Shown: piece after piece, positions 9,043 to 25,633 of the stretch | Layout of the letters: every line of letters begins with the position of its first letter | How positions within the stretch are numbered: the first letter of the stretch is position 1 | Assembly (NCBI GenBank): GCA_001781435.1 | Contig: MFLV01000009.1 | Location: forward strand, 435 to 58,698 | Reading direction: 5' to 3' | DNA: 58,264 nucleotides | DNA from: Candidatus Kaiserbacteria bacterium RIFCSPLOWO2_01_FULL_51_21 | Lineage (GTDB): Bacteria > Patescibacteriota > Minisyncoccia > Phycocordibacterales > 2-01-FULL-51-21 | Notes under the pieces: model-generated | What the model was told of the DNA's origin: nothing | What the model saw: only the letters and a program-made list of their open reading frames with translations | Databases searched by the model: none | Position numbers and translations under genes: made by a program

Positions 9043-9112
9043 GGAGAAAGGCACGCTGTCTCCGGGCGGCACTATATTGCGTGAGAATCCCTAATACGAG
9101 ATACTTACATAC

Positions 9113-10707: not shown

Positions 10708-10713
10708 CTAAGC

Positions 10714-11535: not shown

Positions 11536-11544
11536 GAATAGCTG

Positions 11545-11560
11545 ACAATAAATTTATTGT
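11545..11560. promoter_or_regulatory. perfect 16-bp palindrome, candidate TrmB operator
   Basis: ACAATAAATTTATTGT lies 10 nt upstream of the trmB-like start. Related sites are ATTGTTGT-N9-ACAACAAT (11557-11581) and GACAACAATTTATAT (11680-11694). Confidence 0.45.
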
Positions 11561-11780
11561 TGTCCGAGTATAACAACAATAGTAAAGGAAATCAAGTAAA
11601 GGCTTACCGCTCTCTGTTTTTAATGATCGACAGCTTTTGACGGCTAGCCAGTAGCATTGAGTTATTTTTGTCTATCATCGACAACAATTTATATTAGAAC
11701 ACCATTTCCATCAGAGTTCATAGTGCGTCGAAGGTTAGCTTTTGAGGCTTACCCTCGACTTTGAAAACAGGAGAAGAGTC

Positions 11781-12515: not shown

Positions 12516-12531
12516 AAAAGGAGAGTGGATA

Positions 12532-14058
12532 ATGTCTGTCATCAAGGCACGTAAATTGGGTGGTTTTCTTGAGTTCAACCCGGCTGAACAAAGGGTCCTC
12601 GAGGACCTCAAACTCAAGATACTCCAAGCCTATGAAAGCTTCGGCTTTGTGCCGATCGAGACCTGTGCGGTTGAGCCGAAGGAAGTGCTCACCGCGAAAG
12701 GAGGTTCGATCGACAAACAAATCTACGCCGTCAGCCGTCTTGTTGGCGAAGTCGAACTAAACGCCTCTCTTGAAGAGGCGATCAAGAGGCTTTCTGAAAA
12801 TGGAGCCCCGAGCTTCCTGGAGTCCTACTTGAACGCCGATTCCCTAAAGGAGTTCAAGTTCGAGGAAGAGGATAGCGACGATGTGAAGGTGCTGAAGGTT
12901 ATCCGCGGTCTCGTCAAACGGTCGCAGACGGACATGGCACTTCATTTCGACCTCACAATTCCGTTCGCCCACTATGTCGCGAAGTATAAGAACGAGCTGG
13001 TGTTTCCATTCCGCCGCTACCAAATGCAGAAGGTTTGGCGGGGTGAGCGGCAGCAGTCTGGGCGTTATCGCGAGTTCTACCAGTGCGACATCGACGTGAT
13101 CGGCCGAGGGGAGCTGAGTCTCCTTGCGGACGCAGAAATGCCGAGCATCATTAGTCAAATCTTCGATAAGATGAACATCGGCAGGTTTGTTACCCGCATT
13201 AGTAACGCCAAGATCCAGCAGGAATACTTCCGCTACGCGGGTGTTCCCGAGGAACTTCTTGTCGTTGCAAAGGACGCCATCGACGAGCTGGGAAAGGTCG
13301 GCGTCAATAGGACAGTCACTTCTCTCAGCGTTGGTACGGGTATCTCCACGGATCGTGCGCGAGAGGTTGTTGGGTTCGTAACTCAAAGCGGCCTCTCGTC
13401 TGACGACCTGCTCAAAAAGCTCGCAACCATCCCTGTGAGTGATCGTTACCGTACGGGCTTGGCCGAACTCGGAGAGGTCATGGAAGGGGTACGGGTGTTT
13501 GGAGTTCCAGATACCCAGGTGCGGGTTGACCTCTCTGTCGCTCGCGGGCTCGACTACTACACGAGTACCGTCTACGAAACGGTACTCGTCGACCAGTCGG
13601 GAGTCGGGAGTGTCTGTGGAGGTGGCAGGTATGACGACCTCGCCAGTTACTACACCGATGAGAAATTCCCCGGTGTTGGAATTTCCATTGGACTTACGAG
13701 ACTTGTGGCTCGGCTTATAGGGGCCAAGCTCGTAGAGCCAAAACACACCGCCACTGCGTCCGTGCTTGTTACCACGCTCGGCTTTGCTCACATGCCCAAG
13801 TACACAAAAATCGCAAGACAACTCCGTGCGGCGGACATCAACACGGAACTCTATCTTGGCCTAGCGCCGATTGGCAAGCAACTCCAGTATGCCAATCGGA
13901 AAGGATTCCAGCTGGCCATCATCGCAGGCGACCGGGAGTTTGACCGGAATTGCGTCCAAATTCGAAACCTTGTCACTGGCAAAAGCGGCGAGTACCTAAC
14001 CGATTCGATCGTCACGGAGGTCAACTACATACTCGGTCTGATTCGCGAAGGTCGCTAG
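12532..14058 (+). CDS. hisS: histidyl-tRNA synthetase with an internal insertion of about 65 aa
   Basis: Class II motifs FRRYQMQKVWRGERQQSGRYREFYQCDIDVIG and GGGRYDDL, plus a C-terminal anticodon-binding domain. ATG at 12532 behind AAGGAGAG; the track ORF from 12331 overlaps the upstream gene. Confidence 0.9.
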   Translation: MSVIKARKLGGFLEFNPAEQRVLEDLKLKILQAYESFGFVPIETCAVEPKEVLTAKGGSIDKQIYAVSRLVGEVELNASLEEAIKRLSENGAPSFLESYLNADSLKEFKFEEEDSDDVKVLKVIRGLVKRSQTDMALHFDLTIPFAHYVAKYKNELVFPFRRYQMQKVWRGERQQSGRYREFYQCDIDVIGRGELSLLADAEMPSIISQIFDKMNIGRFVTRISNAKIQQEYFRYAGVPEELLVVAKDAIDELGKVGVNRTVTSLSVGTGISTDRAREVVGFVTQSGLSSDDLLKKLATIPVSDRYRTGLAELGEVMEGVRVFGVPDTQVRVDLSVARGLDYYTSTVYETVLVDQSGVGSVCGGGRYDDLASYYTDEKFPGVGISIGLTRLVARLIGAKLVEPKHTATASVLVTTLGFAHMPKYTKIARQLRAADINTELYLGLAPIGKQLQYANRKGFQLAIIAGDREFDRNCVQIRNLVTGKSGEYLTDSIVTEVNYILGLIREGR

Positions 14059-14083
14059 CCGCCGTGTAGTCCAGTTCACTTAT

Positions 14084-14124
14084 GCGCTCCATTCTTCTTT
14101 CGGGAAGGTGGAGCGTTCTTTTTG
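14084..14124 (+). terminator. intrinsic terminator after hisS
   Basis: GCGCTCCA pairs with TGGAGCG, with an inner CTTC/GAAG pair, followed by TTCTTTTTG. Confidence 0.6.
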
Positions 14125-14150
14125 TCAAGAGGAGAGAAGAGTGATATAAA
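14122..14150 (+). promoter_or_regulatory. sigma70-type promoter, leaderless-type spacing
   Basis: TTGTCA (14122-14127), 17-nt spacer, TATAAA (14145-14150). Only 6 nt remain before the ATG at 14157. Confidence 0.55.
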
Positions 14151-14156
14151 TGTGAA

Positions 14157-14711
14157 ATGCAAACGCGCAAGAAATATCAAATCGGTGTAATGGGTTCAGC
14201 CGCCGACCTTAACTATGCCCCAGAAATTGAGAGGATGGCTTTTAAAATCGGAAGAACTATTGCCGAATCAGGAAATATTATTGTATACGGAGCCGAGAAA
14301 GACTACGATTCGCTTTCCACTGCGGCGGCACGAGGAGCAAAGAGCGCAGGCGGTCTTACCGTTGGTGTGACGTATGGAAAGGGAAAAGAGGTTTGGGACA
14401 AAGAGGGAAATACGGATGTCCTTGTCGTAACCGGAGTTGAACGCGGGGGCGGACGAGAATTTGTACTCGTCAACTCTTGTGACGCCATCATTATCGTTTC
14501 AGGCGGCTCGGGGACGCTTACTGAAGCAGCAATGGCCTACCAACTAAACATTCCTATTGTTGCGCTTGTTGGTACCGGTGGATGGGCAGACAAACTTGCA
14601 GGAACATACATAGACGCGCGGGAGCGTATCAAAGTTGAGACAGCTAAAACGCCGGAAGAAGCCGTTGAAAAAGCCATTCAGATAATTCAAAAAGGTGTTC
14701 GAATTGTTTGA
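14157..14711 (+). CDS. LOG-family protein (TIGR00725-like)
   Basis: 184 aa; IGVMGSA...GAKSAGGLTVGV...SGGSGTLTEAAMA (PGGxGTxxE-type motif). Confidence 0.75.
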   Translation: MQTRKKYQIGVMGSAADLNYAPEIERMAFKIGRTIAESGNIIVYGAEKDYDSLSTAAARGAKSAGGLTVGVTYGKGKEVWDKEGNTDVLVVTGVERGGGREFVLVNSCDAIIIVSGGSGTLTEAAMAYQLNIPIVALVGTGGWADKLAGTYIDARERIKVETAKTPEEAVEKAIQIIQKGVRIV

Positions 14712-14792
14712 CAAGTTATTCTTAAAAATGCTAACATACATTTACCTAGATATGAGCAAGGAATTTCAAATGAATTCTCATAATCACCATGT

Positions 14793-14820
14793 TTTCCTCC
14801 TTGGAGGAGGAGGTTTATTT
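14793..14820 (+). terminator. intrinsic terminator-like hairpin
   Basis: TTTCCTCC-TTGGA-GGAGGAGG followed by TTTATTT. It lies inside a 24-codon His/Gly-rich mini-ORF (14752-14826). Confidence 0.45.
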
Positions 14821-14859
14821 TGGTGATTTTTGTCTTGACAAAATCATAACACCAAAGTC

Positions 14860-14884
14860 AATCCCTTCCTCGAAGGGATTTTTA
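14860..14884 (+). terminator. intrinsic terminator
   Basis: AATCCCTTC-CTC-GAAGGGATT followed by TTTAATT. Confidence 0.6.
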
Positions 14885-14929
14885 ATTGAGGAAGAGTTCT
14901 TTCACAGCAACCAACACTGAGAGGTATCA

Positions 14930-15811
14930 ATGTCTGCTCCAGACACTAACGAAGCAGAAGTATCCGCTCTTCCCTATGTCGTGTCAGCAGACGTACGTTT
15001 GCTACTCGAGGGATGGGCAAAGACCGCCGACTTCAAGATGCCGGAAGAGCGTTTTTTCGAAGAGCTACGTGAGGAATTCTCGACATACATGAAAAAAATT
15101 TTCCCATCGTTTGAATTCCTACACGAAAACACTATCCTCGCCGAGATGCAAGAGCTAATGAAAGAGTGCGGACTGCCAATCGTGAGTCTTGACCGTGCGT
15201 ATTGGCATTCCAACCTCGCGATCGAGTTATCGCGTAACGTGGGCACGGATATGTCAGACCTGGGTCTTGCTCCTCGCAGTGGAACACCTTCACTTGAGCA
15301 ACAGGTGAGTTTCATTGCTTCGCAGGCCGTAGAAGTTGTCCTTGTTGACGATGTGATCTTCAGTGGTGACCTAATCGAAAGTGTCATCACAAGTCTCAAA
15401 CGCTGCGGTGTGGGAGTAAGGGCAGTGTACGCCGCTGTCGGTGTAGCCAACGGCGTAAATCGCGTTCAGCAACACGTCGAGAAAGTTCGTTGTATACGTT
15501 TGTATCGGGCCGTCCGTGATGAGGTGTGTGAGCGCGATTTCTACCCGGGAGTGCCTTTTTCTGGCCGATCACTTGTCGGTGGTGATAATGTTGGGTTACC
15601 CTATGTCCTTCCTTTCGGGAATCCAGTTGAATGGGCGTCTATCCCGCAAGATTGCGTAGACGATTTCTCGCGGTTTTGTATCCGGCAGACACGTACCCTT
15701 TTCAGGGAAATTGGGCGTGTGTCAGAGCGAGAAGTGCGCTGTTGCGACCTGCCCAGAAAAGTACACAAAATCTCTAGCAGCAACAAGAGATTCGTCGATG
15801 TCCTCAGTTGA
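14930..15811 (+). CDS. type I phosphoribosyltransferase-like protein with a novel N-terminal domain
   Basis: 293 aa. PRPP-loop-like VEVVLVDDVIFSGDLI; the first 130 aa or so are not recognised. Confidence 0.6.
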   Translation: MSAPDTNEAEVSALPYVVSADVRLLLEGWAKTADFKMPEERFFEELREEFSTYMKKIFPSFEFLHENTILAEMQELMKECGLPIVSLDRAYWHSNLAIELSRNVGTDMSDLGLAPRSGTPSLEQQVSFIASQAVEVVLVDDVIFSGDLIESVITSLKRCGVGVRAVYAAVGVANGVNRVQQHVEKVRCIRLYRAVRDEVCERDFYPGVPFSGRSLVGGDNVGLPYVLPFGNPVEWASIPQDCVDDFSRFCIRQTRTLFREIGRVSEREVRCCDLPRKVHKISSSNKRFVDVLS

Positions 15812-15835
15812 TGTAAAGCGAAGCAGGATTACTCC

Positions 15836-15869
15836 TTGGCCGCCGCGCTTAAAAAACGGCGGCCAATTT
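15836..15869 (+). terminator. intrinsic terminator after the PRTase-like gene
   Basis: TTGGCCGCCG pairs with CGGCGGCCAA (10 bp), followed by TTT. Confidence 0.65.
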
Positions 15870-15890
15870 CTTAACTATACAAAGTAAATT

Positions 15891-15918
15891 TTGGCCTTGT
15901 GTGACACAAGCTTATATT
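15891..15918 (+). promoter_or_regulatory. candidate promoter with a palindromic operator in the spacer
   Basis: TTGGCC (15891-15896), 16-nt spacer, TATATT (15913-15918). The perfect palindrome CTTGTGT-G-ACACAAG (15896-15910) fills the spacer. Confidence 0.45.
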
Positions 15919-15923
15919 GTAAA

Positions 15924-15965
15924 ATGTCTGCATCCTATAGCCATTTGCGAATGGCGTTGGTTTGA
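15924..15965 (+). CDS. 13-codon ORF (MSASYSHLRMALV), candidate leader or substrate peptide
   Basis: The ATG is 5 nt after the -10 box and the TGA is 3 nt before the next ATG. No SD and no homology evidence. Confidence 0.2.
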   Translation: MSASYSHLRMALV

Positions 15966-15968
15966 TTA

Positions 15969-17489
15969 ATGCAACAAAAACTGACCGGAACTCCATCGAT
16001 TCAGCCGGCCAATCTCTTGGGTCTTATAAAATCCAAGGGTACTAATTACTGGATGAAAGTCAGAGAAAGGCAAATGCTGGAGCTTTTTCATGCCACATCT
16101 AAAAGGGTACCGGCGTATAAAGACTATTTGAAAAAGTCTAAGGTGAATCCTGAACGAATAGAGACGCTTAAAGATTTTGCGTCAATTCCACCAATCAATA
16201 AGAAAAATTACCTTCGTGTCTATCCTTTTGATAAACTCGTGTGGGACGGCGATATTAAAAAACCCATAACGATCCACGCGACATCAGGATCTACTGGCGA
16301 ACCCACTTATTTTCAAAAAGAATTCATCTTTGATCGAAGACGAGAGCTGATTCTTGAGAATTTTTTTAACTGCAACGAACTAACCTTAGAAGGGCCTACT
16401 TTATTCGTTATTACTTTCGGTATGGGAGTTTGGTCGGCTGGAATGAGCATATACACGGCTGCTTATCTAGCAACAAATAAAAATACTTACCCTATTTCTA
16501 TAATTTCTCCCGGTATTAATAAAATTGAAGTCCTTAAAATTTTAAAGAAGTTGGCACCTTACTACCAGCAAGTAATCATCGCCGGCTATCCTCCTTTTGT
16601 CAAAGATATTATCGACGATGCTCTTCGAGAAGGAATAGATATTAAAAAGTTTAATACCAGGTTTATTTTTACCGGGGAGAGTTTCACTGAAGAATTCAGA
16701 AATTATTTATCCGAAAAAGCGGGAATCAGAAACATTTTTACTGACACCATGAACACTTATGGAACGTCAGAATTAGGTGCTATGGCAGTAGAAACCCCAG
16801 CTTCAATTTTTATAAGAAGACTGGCACAAAAGAAAAATGTCTACAAAGAGTTATTTGGGGATGGCGTTAACATTCCAACGTTGGCTCAGTATATTCCTTA
16901 TTTTGTGAATTTTGAATGTGTAAGTGGGGACTTGTACTTTACCGGCAACAACACGATCCCTCTGGTTAGATATCAACCTGGAGATAGCGGTGGAGTTTTC
17001 ACCTTTCAGCAACTAGAAAATAGCTTGCTGAATGTAGACGTTAGATTAAAAGCAGAGTTTGAAAAGCTTGGTATCTCTAAATATATCCACAAACTCCCTT
17101 TTGTATATGTGTATGAAAGAAAGAACTTAGCCACAACTTTGTATGGTATTTTAATATACCCAGAATTTCTAAAAATAGCTTTGTTAAACAGACAACTTAA
17201 TCAATTTTTGACGGGTAAATTCACTATGATAAGAAAACATGATAAGAGGCAAAATCAATATCTAGAGATAAACCTGGAATTAAAGAAAGGAGTTTACTTT
17301 AAGAAATACTACGAGACAAAGACGCTAGAAAAAATAATTGAGACGCTAAAATTAAAAAGCTCTGAATTTAGAGAACTTTATAAAAACCTACAAAACAAAG
17401 CAAACCCAAAACTTGTATTTTGGCCATACGAAGACGAGAAATACTTCAAGCCCGGAATAAAACAAACTTGGGTAAAGAAAATATCTTAA
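15969..17489 (+). CDS. adenylate-forming enzyme, PaaK / coenzyme F390 synthetase-like
   Basis: 506 aa with HATSGSTGEPTYF and YQPGDSGG motifs. Resembles the phenylacetate-CoA ligase N-terminus (VPAYKDYLKKSKVNPERIETLKDFASIPPINKKNY). Confidence 0.75.
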   Translation: MQQKLTGTPSIQPANLLGLIKSKGTNYWMKVRERQMLELFHATSKRVPAYKDYLKKSKVNPERIETLKDFASIPPINKKNYLRVYPFDKLVWDGDIKKPITIHATSGSTGEPTYFQKEFIFDRRRELILENFFNCNELTLEGPTLFVITFGMGVWSAGMSIYTAAYLATNKNTYPISIISPGINKIEVLKILKKLAPYYQQVIIAGYPPFVKDIIDDALREGIDIKKFNTRFIFTGESFTEEFRNYLSEKAGIRNIFTDTMNTYGTSELGAMAVETPASIFIRRLAQKKNVYKELFGDGVNIPTLAQYIPYFVNFECVSGDLYFTGNNTIPLVRYQPGDSGGVFTFQQLENSLLNVDVRLKAEFEKLGISKYIHKLPFVYVYERKNLATTLYGILIYPEFLKIALLNRQLNQFLTGKFTMIRKHDKRQNQYLEINLELKKGVYFKKYYETKTLEKIIETLKLKSSEFRELYKNLQNKANPKLVFWPYEDEKYFKPGIKQTWVKKIS

Positions 17490-17490
17490 T

Positions 17491-18609
17491 ATGGAGAAAC
17501 CTACAATTTTTGACTCAACTCTTCATCAATTGAAAGAAATCAAAAGCAAATGTCAGCCTTATAAAACAATGGATACTTATAAGGAACAGTTAGAAGAACT
17601 GTTCCTTATAAGGAATCCTCGATTTAAATTTAATAATGACTATCAACAGGACTTCCGACAATTCCTGGAAGAGCATTCACAAAATAAGGACTTGCAAAGT
17701 TGCGGAAATTGGGTGTATTTTCCCTGGAACAGCTTGTTGGTTCATTATCTAAAGGATGATCTGCATCAAGAAGTAAGGACCGCAAGAAATAAGAATCTAA
17801 TTTCAGAAGACGAACAAGAGAGATTCTATAATTCCAGAGTCGGCATTGCTGGCTTAAGTGTAGGAAGTCATGGGGCAATAACTATTGCCCTTATGGGCGG
17901 CAGTAAGCATATGAAGCTGGCTGATCCTGATACAGTTTCCCCTTCAAACTTAAACAGGATAAGATTCACATTCGCTGAGGTTGGCGTAAACAAAGCAGAG
18001 TTAGTCGCACAATACATCTATCAGCTTAATCCTTATGCAGAAATCGATGTGTACTCACAGGGAGTAGATAAGAATAATCCAGGAGAATTTTTAGATGGAC
18101 TGGATATCCTAATCGAGGAATTGGATGACATTGAGATTAAAGTTAGCATTAGAGAGGAGGCAAAAAAAAGAAGTATCCCAGTAGTGATGGCTACAGATAA
18201 CGGGGACGATGTAATTCTTGACATCGAGAGATTTGATTTAAACCCTGACGCGCCCATTTTTTATGGGAAACTTGAAGGTCTAGACATAAGCGAGATAAAA
18301 AAATCACCACGTAAAATGTACGAGGCTATGGCAAAAATTATCGATGTATCGTTGGTACCGCCTAAAGTACTGCATTCGGTTATGGAGGTTGGGAAAACCA
18401 TATATTCTTGGCCACAGCTGGCATCTGCAGCAACTTTATCAGGAGCGGTTATTGCTTACATTGTAAGAAAAATTGTCCTAGGAGAAAAAATAAACGAGGG
18501 GAAATTGCGAGTTAATTTAGACCTGATATTTGACTCTGATTACAAAAAGAATGAGGGTCTAAGGAAGGAAGAATTGGGTAGATTTTTTAAAGCGCTTGGT
18601 GACCTATAA
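17491..18609 (+). CDS. ThiF/MoeB/E1-like adenylyltransferase family protein
   Basis: 372 aa. Rossmann motif VGIAGLSVGSHGAITIALMGG and DPDTVSPSNLNR. 1-nt gap from the upstream gene. Confidence 0.75.
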   Translation: MEKPTIFDSTLHQLKEIKSKCQPYKTMDTYKEQLEELFLIRNPRFKFNNDYQQDFRQFLEEHSQNKDLQSCGNWVYFPWNSLLVHYLKDDLHQEVRTARNKNLISEDEQERFYNSRVGIAGLSVGSHGAITIALMGGSKHMKLADPDTVSPSNLNRIRFTFAEVGVNKAELVAQYIYQLNPYAEIDVYSQGVDKNNPGEFLDGLDILIEELDDIEIKVSIREEAKKRSIPVVMATDNGDDVILDIERFDLNPDAPIFYGKLEGLDISEIKKSPRKMYEAMAKIIDVSLVPPKVLHSVMEVGKTIYSWPQLASAATLSGAVIAYIVRKIVLGEKINEGKLRVNLDLIFDSDYKKNEGLRKEELGRFFKALGDL

Positions 18610-18620
18610 TACTCAATGTA

Positions 18621-19667
18621 ATGGATAGAGAAATAATCAAAAAAATAATTGAAGCGGGGAATTATGCGCCATCGGGGAGTAACTCACAACCGTGGAGATT
18701 CGTTTCTAGTGGCAATGTCCTGTGTGTTATTGCTTTGCCTGAAAAAGACCATAAGATTTTCAATTTTAGAAACAGAGGTACATACATTGCTCACGGAGCG
18801 TTGATGGAAAATATTGAAATAGCTTCAAGGTTTTTTAATTACGAGCCACAATTTGAGCTTTTCCCAGAAAATGGAAACAGTTATAGAATAACTTTTTCTC
18901 CATCGAAAGAATCTAAACAAGTTGAACTATACGACTCAATTCTAAAAAGACATACCAATCGGAAATCATACGATACAAAACTTCTTTCTGCTGAGGAAAA
19001 GAAGTATCTTTTTCAAGAGACCAGTAGATTTCCACAATGTGAACTGGTAATTATTGAGGGTGAAAATATTTTGCAACTTGCTCGGAATCTGGCCTACGAC
19101 ATACTGATTTCATTGCAAAATAAGACCCTGCATCAGCTCCTTTTTCAGGAGATTTTATGGAGAGAAGAAGAGCAAAAACTTCGACAGGGCCTTTATGTAA
19201 AGACAATGGAGGTTACGCCTCCAAAAGCTTTTGTCTTCAAAATGCTTAAAAATTGGAACATAGCTAAGTTTCTCAACAAAATAAAATTTACCAAAAAAAT
19301 ATATGACGAGAATGTTAAAAAAATGGTCTCATCGGGGCTGATGGGTGCCATCATTGTTAATGACGATGATAGGAACTTTATTGATGCAGGAAGATTAATG
19401 GAAAATATATGGCTACGAGCCACAAAGCTCGGACTTAGTTTTCAAGTGACCACGGGAATTTTATTCTTATGGCAGCAAGTCAATTTTGGAGAGAAGGAGA
19501 AGTTTTCTGAAACAGAAATAACAACAGTAAATAACGCGTACAAGAATTTGGCAGAGACTCTCAAGGTGCAAAATAAAATAATTGCTCTAATTTTTCGAAT
19601 AGGAAAGGCAGATAAGCCAATGGCAGTCTCTTTCAAGAGACCTCCAAAGATAGAGTGGAGTAACTAA
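18621..19667 (+). CDS. tandem nitroreductase-fold (Acg-like) FMN oxidoreductase
   Basis: 348 aa with APSGSNSQPWRF and RHTNRKSY. The length fits two nitroreductase-like halves. Confidence 0.7.
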   Translation: MDREIIKKIIEAGNYAPSGSNSQPWRFVSSGNVLCVIALPEKDHKIFNFRNRGTYIAHGALMENIEIASRFFNYEPQFELFPENGNSYRITFSPSKESKQVELYDSILKRHTNRKSYDTKLLSAEEKKYLFQETSRFPQCELVIIEGENILQLARNLAYDILISLQNKTLHQLLFQEILWREEEQKLRQGLYVKTMEVTPPKAFVFKMLKNWNIAKFLNKIKFTKKIYDENVKKMVSSGLMGAIIVNDDDRNFIDAGRLMENIWLRATKLGLSFQVTTGILFLWQQVNFGEKEKFSETEITTVNNAYKNLAETLKVQNKIIALIFRIGKADKPMAVSFKRPPKIEWSN

Positions 19668-19687
19668 GCGAAATCATATTTTGAGGC

Positions 19688-21343
19688 ATGATATCAGCTT
19701 TCTTGAATATCCCAAATTTAGATCTTCTTTCAGTTGGCGTGGCGGTCGCGGGAATGGTTGTTTTGGGCTTTGTTACTCTTTTTAGTGATCTTCGAAATTC
19801 TTCTAACCGCATTTTCTTCTATTTGGCTACAACTGCTAGTATATGGGGTATTTTAAATTATTTCTCATACCAGCCATATCCTCCCGACCTCTCTCTGTGG
19901 TTACTGCGGTTGGTTATGTTTTTTGCTGTTTGGTCATCATTTTTTACTTTTACATTTGCATATGTATTTCCAGCGCCAAAAATAAATTTGTCTCGCTCTT
20001 TCAAATGGATTCTCATCCCCCTAACTTTTATAGTAACAACTTTAACCTTGACCCCGTTAGTATTTTCTCAAATAGCGGAAGTCACCTCAACAGGGAACAT
20101 TGCTCGAGTCATTAATGGTCCGGGTATTTTTGTATTTGGTTTGACTGTAATATCTCTCAACCTTGCTGGAATAGTCTTTCTAGTCCGAAAAATAATCAAA
20201 TCGAGCAAGATGGAACGCAAACCTATTCAAATTGTTTTAGTGGGATTTGTTTTAATGCTTTCTTTAATAATAATATTCAACTTTTTTTTGCCAGCATTTT
20301 TTGATAATCCAAGATTTATCCCACTCGGAGCGATGTTTTTATTCCCTTTCGTTGCTTTTACCGCATATGCAATCCTTAGACATAAACTTTTCAATATAAA
20401 GGTGGCAGGGGCCGGGCTTTTGGTCTTTGCTCTATCTATTACTGCCTTCGGCGAAGTGATTTTTGCTCGGGAGCTTTCGCTCATAATCTACCGTAGCAGT
20501 ATTTTTGTTTTAGTGTTGGCCTTTGGTACTTTACTCATCCGAGAAGTTCTTCGTGAAGTCCGGCAACGAGAAGAAATTGAACTTTTGGCGCGGGATTTGT
20601 CGAAGGCTAATACTCGATTAAGGGAGTTGGATCGGCAGAAGTCGGAGTTTGTGTCGATTGCGTCGCATCAATTACGAAGCCCGCTAACAGCAATCCGTGG
20701 ATACGCGTCTCTTGTGCTTGAGGAATCGTATGGGAAGCTTCCCGAGGGAGCAAAAGAGGCGGTGAGACGCATCGCAGACTCAAGCTACCAAATGGTTAAT
20801 TCCGTTGAAGACTTTTTAAACGTGTCGCGTATCGAGCAGGGAAGGATGAAGTACGATTTGGCGGTCTTTGACTTAAGTCAGATGATCCAAAAAGTGGTGG
20901 ATGAAATGCTTCCGGTGGCGCAAAAGAAAGGTCTTGGCCTTACCTACGAAGCGGCAAAGAATGAAAAATACAGCATCAAGGCGGACGAAGGAAAAATCCG
21001 CCAAGTTATTGCTAATATTGTTGATAATTGCATTAAATACACACCGAGGGGGTCGATACACGTCAACTTGCAACGAACCCCTCGACCGAGCTCGGGGCAA
21101 GCAACAGACAAACTACTCACCACCATTACGGACACCGGGGTAGGGATGTCAAAAGAAACGCTTGAGCGGCTATTCAGCAAGTATGTCCGAGCCGACAACG
21201 CGAGCCGCACCAACGTTGGTGGCACCGGACTCGGTCTCTATGTTGCCAAACAATTCGTCGACGCCCACAACGGTCGCATCTGGGCCAAATCAGCAGGAGA
21301 AGGCAAGGGCTCCAGTTTCTTTATCGAACTGAACGCCGCTTGA
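19688..21343 (+). CDS. sensor histidine kinase with a multi-TM N-terminal domain
   Basis: About eight hydrophobic helices, then HisKA (SHQLRSPLTAIRGYAS) and HATPase (DTGVGMSKE, GGTGLGLYVAKQFV). No response regulator in the window. Confidence 0.88.
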   Translation: MISAFLNIPNLDLLSVGVAVAGMVVLGFVTLFSDLRNSSNRIFFYLATTASIWGILNYFSYQPYPPDLSLWLLRLVMFFAVWSSFFTFTFAYVFPAPKINLSRSFKWILIPLTFIVTTLTLTPLVFSQIAEVTSTGNIARVINGPGIFVFGLTVISLNLAGIVFLVRKIIKSSKMERKPIQIVLVGFVLMLSLIIIFNFFLPAFFDNPRFIPLGAMFLFPFVAFTAYAILRHKLFNIKVAGAGLLVFALSITAFGEVIFARELSLIIYRSSIFVLVLAFGTLLIREVLREVRQREEIELLARDLSKANTRLRELDRQKSEFVSIASHQLRSPLTAIRGYASLVLEESYGKLPEGAKEAVRRIADSSYQMVNSVEDFLNVSRIEQGRMKYDLAVFDLSQMIQKVVDEMLPVAQKKGLGLTYEAAKNEKYSIKADEGKIRQVIANIVDNCIKYTPRGSIHVNLQRTPRPSSGQATDKLLTTITDTGVGMSKETLERLFSKYVRADNASRTNVGGTGLGLYVAKQFVDAHNGRIWAKSAGEGKGSSFFIELNAA

Positions 21344-21360
21344 AGTGGAAAATTGATTAA

Positions 21361-21828
21361 CTATTTCTTTCTAATTTTACGCGCAAGCTTGGCGAGTTTT
21401 GTGTCATTTGCTCGCTTGTAATCGTGTGAGGAAATGTAGCCTTCGTATTTGTTGAAGTACTTATCGACGCTTGAGGCAATTTTTTTCCATTTTCCCGTCT
21501 TGGCAGTCCCGTGCATAGGAAAAAGTTTTGTGTGAGCATGATCTACCCCGTATCCTTCAAACACCAGTGCGGTTCGACCGACACCTCTCAGTTTTGAATC
21601 GAAAAGTTTAGCAACCTTTTTGCTCGCCAGCGTAAGTTCAGAAAGAACAACATCAGAAAGGTCAAAAGTGTAGCTCGGATAATGTTTTTTAGGAATGATG
21701 ACCGTAACTCCCTCTGTATTCGGGAATATGGACAGGAACGCGAGGTGCTTCCTATCCTCCCACACCTTATGACTTGGTGCTTTCCCGGAAACTATATCGC
21801 AGAAGATGCAATCAGGTTTTGTTTGCAT
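21361..21828 (-). CDS. HIT-family hydrolase
   Basis: CIFCDIVSGKAPSHKVWEDRKHLAFLSIFPNTEGVTVIIPKKH and DHAHTKLFP. Confidence 0.8.
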   Translation of the reverse strand: MQTKPDCIFCDIVSGKAPSHKVWEDRKHLAFLSIFPNTEGVTVIIPKKHYPSYTFDLSDVVLSELTLASKKVAKLFDSKLRGVGRTALVFEGYGVDHAHTKLFPMHGTAKTGKWKKIASSVDKYFNKYEGYISSHDYKRANDTKLAKLARKIRKK

Positions 21829-21959
21829 GGATAGAAAATACCGCTAAAGCGACAATTTGTCTCATTTCATCCAAGGTTTTTATCTTTTTTCCCATACTCC
21901 TTATTTAAATACCATTATACCTTAGTTCTGCAGAACATTGGTATAGACCGTACATAGAC

Positions 21960-21987
21960 TTGACAAGGATTTGGGGCCTAGTATACT
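21960..21987 (+). promoter_or_regulatory. consensus sigma70 promoter of the T-box leader
   Basis: TTGACA (21960-21965), 16-nt spacer, TATACT (21982-21987). Confidence 0.7.
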
Positions 21988-21993
21988 GCTTTG

Positions 21994-22254
21994 TAGGTAA
22001 AACCCTTGACTGAGGTCCCTGCACAGCAGGGGTTGGGCCTTGGTCGTCCTGAGGTTATTCGAAGGACAGGGTGGCTTCTGCGGAAGTGGAAGCCCGGGTT
22101 CGCCCGTTATCGCGATAATCGATGTCGTCCGCAAGGATGGAGTCGATGAGGTCCTAAACGCCAACAGGCGTCGGATGAAAAGGGTGGCAACGCGGAGGAC
22201 TCTTCGCCCCTTTGTACGTTTAGAACGTGCACAGAGGCGAGGAGTTTTTTGTTT
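21994..22254 (+). promoter_or_regulatory. T-box riboswitch leader, probably tRNA-Trp responsive, with terminator
   Basis: T-box sequence AAAAGGGTGGCAACGCGG (22178-22195). The antiterminator can be drawn as AAAGGG / 7-nt bulge UGGCAAC / GCGGAG-GACU-CUUCGC / CCCUUU. The competing terminator is ACTCTTCGCCCCT (22199-22211) / AGAGGCGAGGAGT (22233-22245) plus TTTTTTGTTT. Confidence 0.75.
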
Positions 22255-22292
22255 GGTGCAATCCTGATGCTACGAACACAGGAGAGAAGGGC

Positions 22293-22469
22293 ATGAAAAA
22301 CGACATCTTGGAACGTGCGAAGAAGGCTCTAGGGGCGGACTCCAGCGATGAACTCTTCGCAATGATCCGCAAGGGGAATGGGCAAGCATTCATCGATGGG
22401 TTGAGCGACCAGGACGAGGAAATCCTCGACCGATGGTACCGGTCTCGGCAAGACCAACTCGGTCGCTGA
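22293..22469 (+). CDS. small acidic hypothetical protein (58 aa)
   Basis: ATG at 22293 behind GGAGAGAAGG (MKNDILERAKKALG...). The longer track ORF from 22227 would overlap the T-box terminator. Confidence 0.45.
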   Translation: MKNDILERAKKALGADSSDELFAMIRKGNGQAFIDGLSDQDEEILDRWYRSRQDQLGR

Positions 22470-22487
22470 TGCACTAACCTATAGGTA

Positions 22488-22531
22488 GCAGGGAATGAGG
22501 AGAAATCCTCATTCCCTCTGCCAAATTTTTT
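22488..22531 (+). terminator. very stable GAAA-tetraloop hairpin, terminator-like
   Basis: GCAGGGAATGAGGA-GAAA-TCCTCATTCCCTCTGC, then CAAATTTTTT. Confidence 0.45.
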
Positions 22532-22568
22532 GAAATCACGTATCATGTAAGAAATCGGAAAAATTTCC

Positions 22569-23780
22569 ATGCAAAACAAAAAGCAAAACTACGGAGGAGC
22601 CTATGTGCCGGAAATGCTGCTTCCGACATTGCATGCTATTGAAAAAGAACTTGAGAGAGCCCTGAAAGATCCCGCTTTCATAAAGGAGTTTCAGGGACTT
22701 TTGAAAGACTTTGCCGGAAGACCAACCCCACTTACTTTTGCAAAAAACATCACTGAGCAGTTTGGCGGCGCGAAATGCTATCTCAAAAACGAGGGACTCA
22801 ATCATACTGGCGCGCACAAGATAACACACTGCATCGGCCAGGCGCTTATCGCAAAACGCCTTGGCAAAACGACACTCATTGCAGAAACTGGCGCTGGCCA
22901 GCACGGACTTGCTACCGCAACCGTCGCGGCAAAGCTTGGCTTCAAGTGCAAAATATTTATGGGAAGTGAAGATATGTCGCGGCAGAGGCCGAACGTCTTT
23001 TGGATGGAGAGGCTTGGCGCCGAGGTCATCCCCGTCACGTACGGAAGTCGGACGCTTAAGGATGCCGTCAACGAAGCGCTAAAATACTGGATGCAAAATC
23101 TTTCCGATACCCACTACGTTATAGGGTCAGTCTTGGGTCCAAGTCCATACCCGCGAATGAATCGGGTATTTCAATCTGTTGTCGGCAGAGAGGTAAGAGA
23201 GCAAATGAAGGATTTTGAAGGGAAACTTCCTGATGTCGTAATCGCCTGTGTCGGCGGCGGCAGTAACGCAATGGGAATTTTTTCCGAGTTTCTCAATGAG
23301 AAAAGTGTTTCTCTTGTGGCGGTTGAAGCAGGAGGAGTCGGAAATGCGCTTGGGGAACATGCTTCAAAGGCTCGTTCTGGAGAACTTGGCATTGCCCAAG
23401 GGTATAAATCGCTTTTCTTGCAAGATAACGGGCAGATCGCACCCACTCACAGCATCTCGGCAGGTCTGGACTATCCCGGCCTTGGCCCAGAGTTGGCGGC
23501 TCTTAAAGAGGAAGGAAGGGTGGAGTTCCAATCTGCAAGCGATAGCGAGACACTCTCTGCGGTAGACCTTCTTGCGCGCACTGAGGGAATAATTCCCGCG
23601 CTTGAATCTGCGCACGCCCTTGCCTACGCCGTAAAGCTTTTACCCACACTTGCTAAAGAGAAAATTGTTGTGGTGAATATTTCAGGGCGCGGGGATAAAG
23701 ACCTCTTTCTTATCGCCCGGGCAATGAAGGATCAGTCGTTTCGTGATTTCCTATTGGAAGAACACCAGCGGTATGAGTAA
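22569..23780 (+). CDS. trpB: tryptophan synthase beta chain
   Basis: 403 aa with the PLP-lysine motif HTGAHKITH and a GGGSNAMG loop. Confidence 0.96.
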   Translation: MQNKKQNYGGAYVPEMLLPTLHAIEKELERALKDPAFIKEFQGLLKDFAGRPTPLTFAKNITEQFGGAKCYLKNEGLNHTGAHKITHCIGQALIAKRLGKTTLIAETGAGQHGLATATVAAKLGFKCKIFMGSEDMSRQRPNVFWMERLGAEVIPVTYGSRTLKDAVNEALKYWMQNLSDTHYVIGSVLGPSPYPRMNRVFQSVVGREVREQMKDFEGKLPDVVIACVGGGSNAMGIFSEFLNEKSVSLVAVEAGGVGNALGEHASKARSGELGIAQGYKSLFLQDNGQIAPTHSISAGLDYPGLGPELAALKEEGRVEFQSASDSETLSAVDLLARTEGIIPALESAHALAYAVKLLPTLAKEKIVVVNISGRGDKDLFLIARAMKDQSFRDFLLEEHQRYE

Positions 23781-24555
23781 GCTCACCGACATCCTTTCTG
23801 CGAAAAGAGAAAAGCCTCTTTTGATGACACACCTTATTACCGGGTATCCCACGCTCGAGAGTTCCCTTGGAATTGCCCGGGCAATGATTCGCGGAGGAGC
23901 TTCAATTCTTGAAATTCAGATTCCTTTTTCCGACCCTGTCGCCGATGGACCGGCGATTGTTGAGGCCTCTCACGAGGCGCTTCGCGGTCACGTCAAAGTG
24001 GAGGACGCTCTCGCTCTTGCGAAAAAACTTGGAGAGGAACACACTACCCCGCTGGTGCTCATGAGCTACGCAAATCCGATTTTCCGCTACGGCATCACCC
24101 GATTTGTGGAGCATGCGGCGGAGGCTGGGGTTGCGGGGATTATTCTTCCCGATATACCAATAGATACAGAGGAAGGAAAAGAGTTTCTCGCGGCCGCAAA
24201 AAAATTCTCGGTGCATCCGATTCTTGTCGTCTCTCCCGGCGTCCCCGAAGAAAGACTGCGCTTTCTGACAAAAGAAGCAAGCGGCTTCATCTACTCAACC
24301 TCGCGGCAGGGAATAACAGGGGCAGACAGTAAATTCGGCTCGGAACTTAAGAACTTTCTTTCCCTGCTTCATAAGATGACCGATATTCCCGTCGCGGTTG
24401 GTTTTGGCGTAAAATCAAAAGAAGATGTACTCTCTCTTGCTTCTCAAGCGGAGATTATTGTTGTCGGAAGCGCTTTTGTCTCGCTCATCAAAAATACTGA
24501 GCTCAAAACAGTCCCGCTTGCAATAGAGGATCTCGTCAAAAAATTGCTTCCATAA
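23773..24555 (+). CDS. trpA: tryptophan synthase alpha chain
   Basis: MSKLTDIL...EIQIPFSDPVADGPAIVEAS. ATG at 23773 overlaps the trpB stop (ATGAGTAA). Confidence 0.92.
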   Translation: MSKLTDILSAKREKPLLMTHLITGYPTLESSLGIARAMIRGGASILEIQIPFSDPVADGPAIVEASHEALRGHVKVEDALALAKKLGEEHTTPLVLMSYANPIFRYGITRFVEHAAEAGVAGIILPDIPIDTEEGKEFLAAAKKFSVHPILVVSPGVPEERLRFLTKEASGFIYSTSRQGITGADSKFGSELKNFLSLLHKMTDIPVAVGFGVKSKEDVLSLASQAEIIVVGSAFVSLIKNTELKTVPLAIEDLVKKLLP

Positions 24556-24652
24556 ATTCTATCAGGAGTAACCTAGAAAAATTCAAACCTTTCTAAGGTC
24601 AGCCACTGATACAGCTTTCAAAACAAGCCCTGATTTGTTAAACTTTTCCCGT

Positions 24653-25633
24653 ATGCCAGAAGGAAAGAAAATACTGCTCTCGGGAACCCAGCCGAGCGGA
24701 CGGCTCCATATCGGGAACTACCTCGGGGCGCTTCGGCAATTCGTCGAACTCCAGAAGACCCATGAGAGCTTTTTCATGATTGCCGATTATCATGCGCTCA
24801 CGAGCGTCCAGGACGGCGGCAAACTTGCCGAAAATACCCTGAACCTTGCAATGGATTATTTGGCTATCGGCATTGACCCGGAGGAATCAGTTATTTTCAA
24901 GCAATCGGACGTGCCAGAGCATATGGAGCTTGCATGGATTTTCAATTGCATCACCACGATGCCCTACCTTATGCGCGCGCATGCGTTCAAAGACGCCGAG
25001 GCAAAAAACAAAGAAATCAGCGTGGGCAAATTTGAGTATCCCATGCTCATGGCGGCAGACATCCTCCTGTATGAGACCGAGGTTGTGCCAATCGGACAAG
25101 ACCAGAAACAGCACGTAGAGATTACCCGTGACACTGCGGAAAAATTCAACCGAATCTTCGGCGAAACTTTTGTCCTGCCAGCGCCGCTTATTCTCGACGA
25201 AGTGGCAACCGTACCCGGCATTGACGGACGCAAGATGAGCAAGAGCTACGGCAACGACATCGGACTCTTTGCTGATGACGGTGAAATAGAATCCAAGGTG
25301 ATGAGTATTGTGACTGATTCAAAAGGAGTGGGGGAAACGAAAGACCCAGAGACCTGTACGGTGTTTGCGCTCCATAAATTCTTCAGCCAAAACGAGCTTC
25401 CGGACATCGAGCGGCGCTATCGAGATGGCTCCATGAGTTATAAAGAGTCAAAAGAAATTCTCGCAAAAAATCTTAAAGACTTCATCGCGCCGCTTCGGGA
25501 GAAGCGAAAAACATTCGAACGCGACCATGATAGAGTCATTGAAATACTCAAAAAAGGAGGGGCGTTTGCCCGCGAGCGGGCGCAAAAGAAAATGGCAGAT
25601 GTGCGATTAAAAGTCGGAACGACACTGTACTGA
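24653..25633 (+). CDS. trpS: tryptophanyl-tRNA synthetase
   Basis: GTQPSGRLHIGNYLGA (HIGH-type) and KMSKS. ATG at 24653 preferred over the TTG at 24635. Confidence 0.95.
   Translation: MPEGKKILLSGTQPSGRLHIGNYLGALRQFVELQKTHESFFMIADYHALTSVQDGGKLAENTLNLAMDYLAIGIDPEESVIFKQSDVPEHMELAWIFNCITTMPYLMRAHAFKDAEAKNKEISVGKFEYPMLMAADILLYETEVVPIGQDQKQHVEITRDTAEKFNRIFGETFVLPAPLILDEVATVPGIDGRKMSKSYGNDIGLFADDGEIESKVMSIVTDSKGVGETKDPETCTVFALHKFFSQNELPDIERRYRDGSMSYKESKEILAKNLKDFIAPLREKRKTFERDHDRVIEILKKGGAFARERAQKKMADVRLKVGTTLY

Follow-up and report, generated by a model that had tools for sequence, protein, structure and literature searches.

A candidate N-acyl-oxazolone pathway associated with a membrane sensor kinase in Patescibacteria

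Introduction

Patescibacteria, most of which are uncultured, are ultra-small bacteria that possess very few regulatory systems, and the locus described here raises the question of what a compact set of three enzyme genes produces in such a cell and why the gene for a membrane histidine kinase follows it. The locus is a four-gene cassette at positions 15969-21343 of a 58,264-nucleotide stretch of contig MFLV01000009.1 from Candidatus Kaiserbacteria bacterium RIFCSPLOWO2_01_FULL_51_21; this 58-kb stretch is the whole DNA analysed and is referred to as the window. Its four open reading frames (ORFs), all on the + strand, encode a ligase (gene 1), a ThiF-like protein (gene 2), a tandem-nitroreductase flavin-dependent oxidase (FDO; gene 3) and the kinase. 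An annotation made earlier from the DNA letters and their translations (the original prediction) had interpreted them as an operon of foreign origin that modifies a peptide or a cofactor, with a kinase that could sense the product, and this interpretation was partly supported. Our sequence comparisons favour, at a probability of about 0.55, a Patescibacteria version of the N-acyl-oxazolone pathway that is coupled to a dedicated membrane sensor kinase.

Oxazolone synthetases were discovered between 2020 and 2025 (bioRxiv 10.1101/2020.06.11.147165, PMC10404671, PMC12856293), and TrzS, OxzB and TyzBC carry out ATP-dependent cyclisation and flavin-dependent desaturation of N-acyl aromatic amino acids (PMC12856293, PMC10404671, bioRxiv 10.1101/2020.06.11.147165). 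TrzS (Rv1355c), in which an ATP-dependent cyclase of the ThiF type and an Acg-like flavin oxidase form a single protein (Kleetz et al., J Biol Chem 2025, PMC12856293), converts N-acyl-L-tryptophan, the product of the N-acyltransferase TrzA (Rv1356c), to N-acyl tryptazolone, an oxazolone (PMC12856293). Every described oxazolone system obtains its N-acyl amino acid from an N-acyltransferase dependent on acyl-coenzyme A (acyl-CoA), namely OxzA, TyzA or TrzA. The physiological role of oxazolones has been called a major unresolved question, and their likeness to signalling molecules has been remarked upon (PMC12856293).

Results and Discussion

Genes 2 and 3 correspond to separate halves of Rv1355c

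Annotation of the cassette by profile and structure, as the original prediction had suggested, was carried out with NCBIfam, Pfam, AlphaFold and Foldseek. Pfam searches identified a ThiF core (2e-24) in gene 2, a short nitroreductase N-terminus in gene 3, HisKA_7TM, HisKA and HATPase_c in the kinase and nothing in gene 1. NCBIfam searches matched the ThiF-like protein to NF005901, the 'Rv1355c family' (722 positions), at 7.4e-93 and 312 bits, with model positions 26-341 aligned over residues 13-349 and the family-specific N- and C-terminal extensions of the Rv1355c-type ThiF domain included in the match, in comparison to at most 83 bits for other NCBIfam ThiF-type models (ThiF, MoeB, TcdA, E1). 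The oxidase matched model positions 374-713 of the same family (9e-49, 166 bits) as well as the Acg family (6e-32), and the rough sum of the two NF005901 scores is 478 bits, compared with a cut-off of 476 for the fused protein. A MAFFT alignment of 11 Patescibacteria ThiF and oxidase concatenates with 13 Rv1355c-family fusion proteins (from Mycobacterium, Rhodococcus, Nocardia, Gordonia, Jiangella, Leucothrix and others) was collinear from end to end, and the motifs GxxGLSVG, LADxD...NLNR, EExD, WPQL, APSGxNxQPW and RxxNR were invariant in it.

In the window ThiF these motifs comprise the Gly-rich loop (aa 118-126), LADPD...NLNR (aa 143-156) and the EELDD Asp D212 (nt 18124-18126), which corresponds to D199 in a 709-aa M. 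senegalense ortholog. The Mg-ATP Asp of the M. smegmatis enzyme, TrzS_Msmeg D217, is the probable counterpart of D212 by position only, with approximate numbering, and the D217A variant loses cyclase activity (PMC12856293). Our genome scan for Rv1355c orthologs returned 80 sequences, those of M. smegmatis and M. tuberculosis not among them, and all mapping to TrzS residues is approximate. Cys 21 and Cys 71 are the only cysteines of the window ThiF, which has no CxxC zinc or sulfur-transfer motif, and its best PDB sequence matches are 9EGB and 9EGC. The oxidase carries APSGSNSQPW (aa 16-25), R110-HTN-R114 and Q275, and its AlphaFold model (pLDDT 93) found Acg (2YMV) as its best PDB match (E 2.8e-14, TM-score 0.70/0.74; next match 7e-6), the same structure that is closest to the TrzS oxidase domain (PMC12856293).

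By homology, genes 2 and 3 are shown to be the predicted equivalents of the two halves of an Rv1355c/TrzS-type oxazolone synthetase, split in the same manner as TyzB/TyzC. The original prediction had described gene 2 as an E1-like adenylyltransferase and gene 3 as an Acg-like double nitroreductase, and the motifs that it quoted were all located in the translations (HATSGSTGEPTYF at ligase aa 103-115, GIAGLSVGSHGAITIALMGG at ThiF aa 118-137 and PSGSNSQPWRF at oxidase aa 17-27). Its reference to Rv1355c/MoeY identified the right kinship (7e-93 and 9e-49), although the description of that protein as being of unknown function is outdated, as Rv1355c is now TrzS.

The ligase has a PaaK-type fold

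The ligase showed no Pfam match, including none to AMP-binding at E ≤0.01. Its similarity to PaaK and F390 synthetase was weak and N-terminal, with low scores against the PaaK models TIGR02155 (51.5 bits, cut-off 646.3) and NF041878 (44.6 bits, cut-off 700) and against the F390 synthetase model TIGR03335 (35.3 bits, cut-off 458.7). The AlphaFold (AF2) model (pLDDT 85.9) in turn revealed a complete two-domain PaaK-type ANL fold, and Foldseek retrieved PaaK2 (2y4o; 1.7e-21, TM-score 0.61/0.70), ClxA (9s3l; 5.7e-13), the aryl-CoA ligase BT_0428 and 2-hydroxyisobutyryl-CoA ligase. The P-loop T105-SGSTGEP-112 (nt 16281-16304), Y264-GTSELG, Y335-QPGDSGG and K498 (nt 17460-17462) were recognised in the sequence, with T105-P112, Y264-G265, G338-D339 and K498 invariant in 28 homologs, and its position suggests that K498 is the catalytic A10 lysine. 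The ligase family contains 466 clusters at 50% identity (E ≤1e-30), and all of its named members are from Patescibacteria. Gene 1 is therefore predicted to be a PaaK-fold enzyme but neither PaaK nor F390 synthetase; the adenylate-forming PaaK fold expected for it was confirmed, while its proposed PaaK/F390 affiliation fell far short of the family thresholds.

Characterised PaaK-fold adenylases (2Y4O, 4R1L, ClxA, NatL2) share the two-domain ANL fold, the P-loop and the C-terminal Lys with the window ligase, which differs from them in having only ~15% identity, ~70 additional residues and scores below the PaaK/F390 cut-offs. ClxA and NatL2 make their amides or esters straight from the acyl-adenylate, with no CoA involved (PMC12519233), so that CoA-independent N-acylation is chemically precedented for this fold. 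The ligase occupies the slot that the N-acyltransferase holds in all described oxazolone clusters, and it may represent a CoA-independent route to N-acyl amino acids that would be of interest for biocatalysis.

The cassette is conserved among Patescibacteria and its genes are naturally fused

An alignment-based scan of GTDB species representatives was needed to survey the distribution of the cassette, a single ligase query having returned just three loci. Relatives of the ligase were detected in 257 species-representative genomes, and the best 80 were all from Patescibacteria, including Paceibacteria/Parcubacteria groups, Wolfe-, Lipton-, Harrison-, Kaiser-, Vogel-, Magasanik-, Roizman- and Kerfeldbacteria and metagenome-assembled genomes (MAGs) labelled Saccharibacteria; one MAG in the set of relatives carried an automated 'Gammaproteobacteria' label. 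ORFs were called on 88 loci and labelled by iterated profiles, and 47 of these loci (two duplicates) had at least 6 kb on both sides. In the well-flanked loci ThiF was found in 47/47, the FDO in 42/47, the 7TM kinase in 39/47 and all four genes in 38/47, and the trio with its kinase accordingly recurs as a unit, which was the neighbourhood search that the original prediction had called for. Ligase-ThiF-FDO-kinase was the main gene order, with ligase-FDO-ThiF-kinase and FDO-ThiF 5' of the ligase as variants.

Clustering of the remaining neighbours identified two additional partners: in 37 of the 76 non-redundant loci, a dehydrogenase or an aminotransferase gene immediately precedes the ligase gene and has the same orientation. 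The former is a short ELFV-type amino-acid dehydrogenase whose best NCBIfam match is the tryptophan dehydrogenase ScyB at ~280 bits against a cut-off of 600, and it is not a ScyB equivalog; ScyB may perhaps be the sole model for the short Leu/Phe/Val/Trp dehydrogenase clade. The latter is a HisC-type class I/II aminotransferase. Four natural fusions were found, comprising ligase-ThiF (P0370, 863 aa), ThiF-ligase (P0444, 880 aa), dehydrogenase-ligase (P0371, 847 aa) and dehydrogenase-ligase-ThiF (P0462, 1,242 aa), and their ThiF parts match the Rv1355c family at 257-302 bits. These fusions place dehydrogenase, ligase and ThiF in one pathway.

A hidden Markov model (HMM) of TrzA-type acyltransferases, built from 32 actinobacterial ORFs in the TrzA position, gave 0 matches in the 4,012 ORFs of the candidate phyla radiation (CPR) loci and in the window ORFs, and no acyltransferase family was present among the recurrent neighbours of the 88 loci. 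Neither YcaO, a precursor peptide or a recurrent small ORF, nor an E2/JAB, beta-grasp or rhodanese partner, was found among the conserved neighbours of these loci; the absence of YcaO noted earlier applies to the cassette and to its recurrent neighbours alike.

Several other candidates for membership were rejected. The HIT gene, the SLOG and phosphoribosyltransferase (PRTase) genes, a 154-aa upstream ORF and a 309-aa ORF located between oxidase and kinase each either occurred in only a small number of lineages or could be attributed to synteny. The 309-aa protein has no Pfam or NCBIfam match, is found in loci L031, L051, L058, L068, L073 and L083, and could represent an extra tailoring step.

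The kinase sensor half co-varies with the enzymes

The kinase scored above the Pfam cut-offs for PF16927 (49.5 bits, cut-off 28.6), PF00512 (64.7 bits) and PF02518 (89.1 bits). Its sensor half contains ~8 hydrophobic or transmembrane segments at aa 13-288 with no large loop, and the boxes of the kinase core are intact (H-box S326-HQLRSPL with His327, N-box 446-452, G1 482-487, G2 512-517). No response regulator or receiver gene was detectable in the 58-kb window; both the eight-helix kinase and its lack of a partner there had been predicted. In other genomes, roughly one third of loci have between one and three stand-alone receiver genes next to the cassette or in its vicinity, and these cassette-associated receivers have no DNA-binding output domains. 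Two NCBI MAG records list the kinase as a 377-aa product without its sensor half despite identical DNA.

Pairwise identities of five segments (ligase, ThiF, oxidase, kinase sensor half and kinase core) were compared across 51 complete cassettes (1,275 pairs) by partial Mantel tests with 2,000 permutations. Controlling for the kinase core, the sensor half correlated with ThiF (r = 0.49, p ≤0.0005) and with the oxidase (r = 0.57, p ≤0.0005), in comparison to r = 0.10 (p = 0.024) for ThiF and r = 0.03 (p = 0.21) for the oxidase against the kinase core when the sensor half was controlled. The ligase, which is the most conserved cassette segment (mean 50% identity), tracked the kinase core (r = 0.36, p ≤0.0005) slightly better than the sensor half (r = 0.26, p = 0.001). 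The oxidase-sensor correlation (0.61) was also higher than that of the kinase sensor half with its own kinase core (0.39), which is hard to explain by linkage alone. ThiF and oxidase divergence follows the sensor half rather than the kinase core, a pattern that is suggestive, the locus pairs not being phylogenetically independent, and in this sense the earlier idea that the kinase may sense the product of the cassette gained support.

Pherotype loci such as staphylococcal agrBDC and Bacillus comQXP have a polymorphic, sometimes horizontally exchanged unit in which the genes that make the signal are combined with the kinase's membrane sensor half, whereas the kinase core is conserved. The window shows the same pattern of variable enzymes and sensor half with a conserved kinase core, and the likeness is one of gene pattern. 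The signals of agrBDC and comQXP are ribosomal peptides, in contrast to the small N-acyl amino-acid-derived heterocycle predicted as the product in the window.

A foreign allele ends inside the kinase gene

The GC content of ligase (0.360), ThiF (0.385) and oxidase (0.364) is well separated from that of the remaining window (0.495). The original prediction had estimated this step by hand counts, and the computed profile confirmed the discontinuity, although the counts themselves were inaccurate (hisS is 0.54 rather than 0.62). In sliding windows the GC content drops in the intergenic region at ~15,700-15,950 and recovers at ~20,350-20,650, inside the kinase gene, at the junction where the 7TM domain (aa 13-288) gives way to HisKA, which starts at aa 317. 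Third-position GC (GC3) follows the same course, with 0.35 for ligase, 0.36 for ThiF, 0.35 for oxidase and 0.34 for the kinase sensor half, compared with 0.56 for the kinase catalytic half and about 0.50-0.64 for flanking genes. The difference between cassette and flank GC (-0.105) lies beyond all 81 comparison loci (median -0.018, minimum -0.094).

The closest relative by housekeeping genes is locus L025 (DnaK 83%, DnaJ 74% identity), and several relatives share the flank order DnaK-DnaJ ... cassette ... TrpRS-Asx-tRNA synthetase, where TrpRS is tryptophanyl-tRNA synthetase. BLAST identities between L025 and the window were 49% for ligase, 47.5% for ThiF, 24.7% for oxidase and 45.9% for the sensor half, in comparison to 70.6% for the kinase core, and for locus L004 the ranking was reversed (61%, 64%, 55% and 51%, with 40% for the core), indicating that the two halves of the kinase have different nearest relatives. 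Among the eight locus pairs with kinase cores at least 72% identical, seven have ligases of at least 74%, ThiF of at least 80% and sensor halves of at least 69% identity, and the exception is the window/L025 pair (ligase 49%, ThiF 45%, sensor 46%). As mosaic pairs are frequent in the data set and linear regression gave modest z-scores for window/L025 (-0.2 to -2.3), our interpretation is based on the reversed identity ranking and on the step in GC3.

The locus is best described as ancestral and syntenic, with the segment from ligase through sensor domain replaced by a foreign lower-GC allele and a breakpoint in the kinase gene; enzymes and sensor half appear to be of foreign origin, and the kinase core and flanks match L025. 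The reading of the low-GC tract as an inserted island was rejected in favour of allelic replacement, given the conserved synteny and the breakpoint inside the kinase gene. The foreign origin proposed earlier consequently stands for the composition of the tract and not for an insertion of the whole cassette, as the tract ends in mid-kinase gene. Sixteen contigs with an identical SLOG or HIT protein were 99.4-100% identical to the window, cassette included, and are uninformative on polymorphism. Over 16.3 kb (8407-24711) the window shares 100% identity with locus L172 (GCA_001779665.1, contig MFKS01000018.1), and it is 99.4-100% identical to contigs from several other metagenomes, indicating that the same population has been sampled repeatedly.

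Comparison with described systems

The window ThiF and oxidase match both halves of the Rv1355c-family model and align collinearly with actinobacterial fusion proteins, the oxidases share 2YMV as closest solved structure, and signalling genes adjoin both loci, c-di-GMP genes flanking trzAS in M. tuberculosis (PMC12856293). TrzA-TrzS of Mycobacterium and Rhodococcus differs in that TrzS is fused in place of two genes, TrzA stands where the window has a PaaK-fold ligase, the hosts are Actinomycetota in comparison to Patescibacteria, a 7TM kinase is conserved only with the window-type unit, and the probable Arg540 equivalent, mapped approximately, is not conserved. TyzACB (Rv2336, Rv2337c, Rv2338c; J Biol Chem 2023, PMC10404671), which makes N-acyl-tyrazolones, is likewise split, with the ThiF protein TyzB adjacent to TyzC, an FDO of ~340 aa; by its architecture as described, TyzA is an acyl-CoA N-acyltransferase rather than an adenylating ligase, and no kinase is present. 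OxzAB of Pseudoalteromonas rubra (de Rond et al., bioRxiv 10.1101/2020.06.11.147165) resembles the cassette in combining ThiF and nitroreductase with ATP-dependent ring closure on a small-molecule substrate, and differs in the OxzB fusion, the N-acyltransferase OxzA, the proteobacterial host and the lack of an associated ligase or kinase. Thiazole/oxazole-modified microcin (TOMM)/SagBCD clusters are more distant, as the window oxidase is Acg/FDO-type and not SagB-type and neither YcaO nor a precursor peptide was found in the cassette or among the recurrent neighbours of the 88 loci, and sulfur-carrier E1 proteins (ThiF/MoeB) differ from the window ThiF, which has neither CxxC nor a ThiS/MoaD partner and scores at most 81 bits on MoeB and ThiF models with cut-offs of 150-450.

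Our literature search found no description in Patescibacteria/CPR of an oxazolone, a ThiF-nitroreductase pair or a PaaK-type combination. The predicted ThiF/FDO core is of an already known kind, the oxazolone synthetase family. What appears to be new is the adenylating ligase in the place of the acyltransferase, supported by the fusions, the recruitment of amino-acid dehydrogenase or aminotransferase genes, Patescibacteria as hosts of an oxazolone-synthetase-type module, and the conservation of this module with a 7TM kinase whose sensor half co-varies.

Two further observations concern Rv1355c-family proteins elsewhere. A fusion gene of this family lies near a GGDEF-domain gene on Rhodococcus qingshengii plasmid NZ_CP042915.1 (1849-6097; locus L089), an arrangement reminiscent of trzAS and its c-di-GMP neighbours in M. 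tuberculosis. Family members of 960-1019 aa in Thiolinea, Leucothrix and Acidimicrobiaceae (loci L160, L169 and L147) have an extra N-terminus of ~280 aa with no Pfam match, which may be a fused acyltransferase-like domain, as the lengths fit NCBIfam PRK14852.

Proposed pathway and alternative explanations

In the proposed pathway, the PaaK-fold ligase would replace the acyl-CoA N-acyltransferase of described clusters. The dehydrogenase or aminotransferase of relatives would convert a hydrophobic or aromatic amino acid to the corresponding 2-oxo acid or the reverse, and the ligase would adenylate a carboxylic acid, in relatives probably a 2-oxo or aryl acid that the adjacent or fused enzyme provides, and join it to the amino group of an amino acid, perhaps directly in the manner of ClxA and NatL2; alternatively, it may form an acyl-CoA. 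ThiF would adenylate the free carboxylate of the resulting N-acyl amino acid and close the oxazol-5-one ring, and the oxidase would desaturate C-alpha/C-beta. Two adenylation steps and a flavin step, as previously envisaged, are plausible with ligase, ThiF and a flavin mononucleotide (FMN) oxidase all present. The lipophilic product or an intermediate would be the ligand of the loop-less 7TM kinase, sensed in the membrane, and in relatives the kinase would signal to one or two stand-alone receiver proteins. The foreign allele would have replaced enzyme genes and sensor half together, as expected for a matched signal/receptor pair. Weak hints point to tryptophan or another aromatic amino acid as substrate, since TrzS is Trp-specific and the dehydrogenases of relatives are ScyB-like, and since TrpRS flanks the cassette in other lineages, with trpBA and TrpRS lying just downstream in the window.

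A bolder extension, which we regard as a tentative possibility, is a widespread Patescibacteria signalling system in which ligase, ThiF and oxidase make an oxazolone or N-acyl dehydroamino-acid derivative, the 7TM kinase is its receptor acting on stand-alone receivers, and enzymes and sensor are exchanged as 'pherotype' modules. If true, the product would be an autoinducer or host-sensing cue of a class that is chemically new for bacteria, and natural oxazolones would gain their first physiological role. With an enzyme module genetically tied to a membrane kinase, the role of oxazolones becomes directly testable, and a conserved signal/receptor cassette would be a rare handle on how Patescibacteria sense neighbours or hosts.

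A number of observations weigh against the oxazolone pathway with its dedicated sensor. The oxidase is absent from 5/47 and the kinase from 8/47 well-flanked loci, and the window has no dehydrogenase, aminotransferase or receiver gene. The ligase might yield a CoA thioester instead of an amide. Recombination linkage of adjacent genes can yield co-variation without any ligand-receptor relation, and sensor domains in general evolve faster than kinase cores. Loci L055/L061 and L068/L073 have alike enzymes with unlike sensor halves, and L068/L073 carry the 309-aa gene. Many Patescibacteria are fermentative anaerobes, so that an alternative electron acceptor may be required, as desaturation by TrzS requires O2. 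Arg540 and Gln651 of TrzS_Msmeg are tested residues near the FMN and substrate site, R540A being desaturase-deficient with low FMN content (PMC12856293, also for the O2 requirement). The probable Arg540 column (offset inferred) reads DRIRFLT in mycobacteria and DILISL in the window, so that its approximate equivalent is Ile in the window oxidase and is not conserved in CPR, and the approximate Gln651 equivalent is Q275 in the window oxidase and His in many CPR relatives.

The kinase missing from some loci, the locus pairs with alike enzymes and unlike sensors, and the position of the cassette amid housekeeping genes with conserved synteny could also be interpreted as the same chemistry serving a membrane or stress lipid, with a kinase that merely regulates the operon or reads an unrelated envelope cue and a linkage that reflects co-regulation or synteny. 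Stress and lipid roles of oxazolones, including mycobacterial tyrazolones, have been discussed (PMC12856293, PMC10404671). This explanation is a serious if doubtful one: it does not account for ThiF and oxidase divergence tracking the sensor half rather than the kinase core of the same gene, nor for an imported low-GC segment that ends at the sensor/catalytic junction, and simple operon regulation is not evident from receivers without DNA-binding outputs. It is unlikely that the ligase is instead an ordinary acyl-CoA synthetase (of arylacetates, for example) feeding an unlinked N-acyltransferase or another pathway, with ThiF and oxidase acting on another substrate. Its closest structures are indeed phenylacetate-CoA ligases and the aryl-CoA ligase BT_0428, and its evolution resembles that of the host and the kinase core more than that of ThiF and the oxidase (Spearman ligase vs ThiF 0.07); however, ligase and ThiF are fused in both orders and in the triple fusion with the dehydrogenase, ThiF adjoins the ligase in 47/47 well-flanked loci, a TrzA-type acyltransferase was found in 0 loci, and the PaaK/F390 equivalog scores are far under their cut-offs.

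The modification of a peptide or cofactor that the original prediction favoured is much less well supported than a small-molecule oxazolone pathway, given the TrzS kinship. Members of the ThiF family (MccB, PaaA, E1s) do adenylate peptide or protein C-termini, and the window ThiF has a weak PDB match to PaaA (4e-4) and weak PADLOC E1-E2 matches (≤38 bits). A role in peptide or protein C-terminus modification, whether of the RiPP (ribosomally synthesised and post-translationally modified peptide)/TOMM, microcin C/PaaA, ubiquitin-like conjugation or defence type, is nevertheless very improbable, as the intergenic gaps of 1 nt (ligase-ThiF), 11 nt (ThiF-oxidase) and 20 nt (oxidase-kinase) are too small for a precursor peptide, no recurrent small ORF, YcaO, E2/JAB or beta-grasp neighbour accompanies a ThiF that itself lacks CxxC, and its 312 bits to the Rv1355c family compare with ≤83 for NCBIfam ThiF-type and ≤38 for PADLOC E1-E2 models. 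The defence-system reading was rejected, PADLOC returning only the weak E1-E2 match through the ThiF core and nothing for ligase or oxidase. Least probable of all, to the point of being negligible, is a cofactor or RNA-modification role (molybdopterin or thiamin sulfur transfer, F420/F390, ct6A-type tRNA cyclisation). Historical annotations as MoeY/MoeW and 'coenzyme F390 synthetase', TcdA among the PDB matches (5e-8) and BluB and FbiB folds among weak structural matches point in that direction, and are countered by scores of 35-81 bits for MoeB, ThiF and TcdA models in comparison to 312 for the Rv1355c family, by the lack of a ThiS/MoaD partner, rhodanese domain or zinc motif, by 35 bits to an F390 model with a cut-off of 459, and by the experimental supersession of the MoeW/MoeY annotations (PMC10404671, PMC12856293).

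Cassette layout and neighbouring features

The coordinates of the cassette and its surroundings are collected in Table 1. The gaps between the genes, recalculated from the ORF coordinates, agree with those given before, and the tight spacing together with the upstream hairpin makes the cassette operon-like. This hairpin, noted before as a strong terminator, is genuine: its GC-rich stem (TTGGCCGCCG / CGGCGGCCAA) is perfectly paired over 10 bp, its loop has 11 nt and its T-tract is weak; the automatic terminator scan, which accepted loops of at most 8 nt, did not list it because its loop exceeds that limit. It forms the 5' edge of the cassette unit, and the GC drop begins just past it. The cassette's 'own promoter' amounts to a site that matches the consensus at just 9/12 positions, in a region that has 17 promoter-like sites in comparison to 15.1 expected from shuffles. 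Rfam searches found no RNA element inside or 5' of the cassette, and the fold of the cassette leader is ordinary (z = -1.3).

Table 1. Positions of the cassette genes, their subdivisions and neighbouring features in the window.
Feature	Position	Strand	Remarks
SLOG/LDcluster4 paralog	11781-12515	+	LOG-like, TIGR00725
hisS ORF	12331-14058	+	575 aa
SLOG/LDcluster4 paralog	14157-14711	+	LOG-like, TIGR00725
PRTase-like gene	14930-15811	+	293 aa
Terminator-like hairpin	15836-15869	+	direct reading and RNA fold; closes upstream PRTase-like gene
Low-GC tract	15850-20500		0.30-0.42 in 300-nt windows; ligase, ThiF, FDO, kinase sensor domain
Promoter-like site TTGGCC-16-TATATT	15891-15918	+	9/12 consensus match only
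Ligase	15969-17489	+	506 aa; PaaK-type (ANL) fold adenylate-forming enzyme
ThiF-like ATP-dependent cyclase (predicted)	17491-18609	+	372 aa; N-terminal half of Rv1355c/TrzS equivalent
Acg-like tandem-nitroreductase FDO	18621-19667	+	348 aa; C-terminal half of Rv1355c/TrzS equivalent
Histidine kinase, whole ORF	19688-21343	+	551 aa
Kinase sensor half, HisKA_7TM	19688-20560	+	PF16927, hydropathy; GC low like enzymes
Kinase linker and catalytic core	20561-21343	+	HisKA, HATPase_c; GC host-like
HIT-family gene	21361-21828	-	HinT-like
Sigma-70-like promoter	21960-21987	+	strong, 11/12
T-box leader match	21997-22214	+	30 bits, E 8.6e-4; gathering score 93
80-aa ORF	22227-22469	+
trpB	22569-23780	+
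trpA	23743-24555	+
TrpRS	24635-25633	+
tRNA-Pro (GGG)	40194-40264	-	sole RNA gene in window at Rfam gathering thresholds

Upstream of the cassette, the two SLOG paralogs flank hisS, whose ORF is over-extended at its 5' end (508 aa from position 12532 in identical public contigs), and the 293-aa protein that follows them has weak phosphoribosyltransferase similarity only. In locus L044, too, SLOG and PRTase genes are neighbours (72% and 50% identity). The HIT gene is convergent with the kinase gene and has a 66% identical homolog near the cassette in locus L019; HIT proteins hydrolyse acyl and aminoacyl adenylates, and the association of HIT with the cassette is not general. Downstream, the strong promoter precedes trpBA-TrpRS, and the T-box match, which is weak but full-length, may be a divergent Trp T-box, with the 80-aa ORF between it and the trpBA/TrpRS genes. 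TrpRS is a recurrent cassette neighbour in other Patescibacteria, where it occurs on either side.

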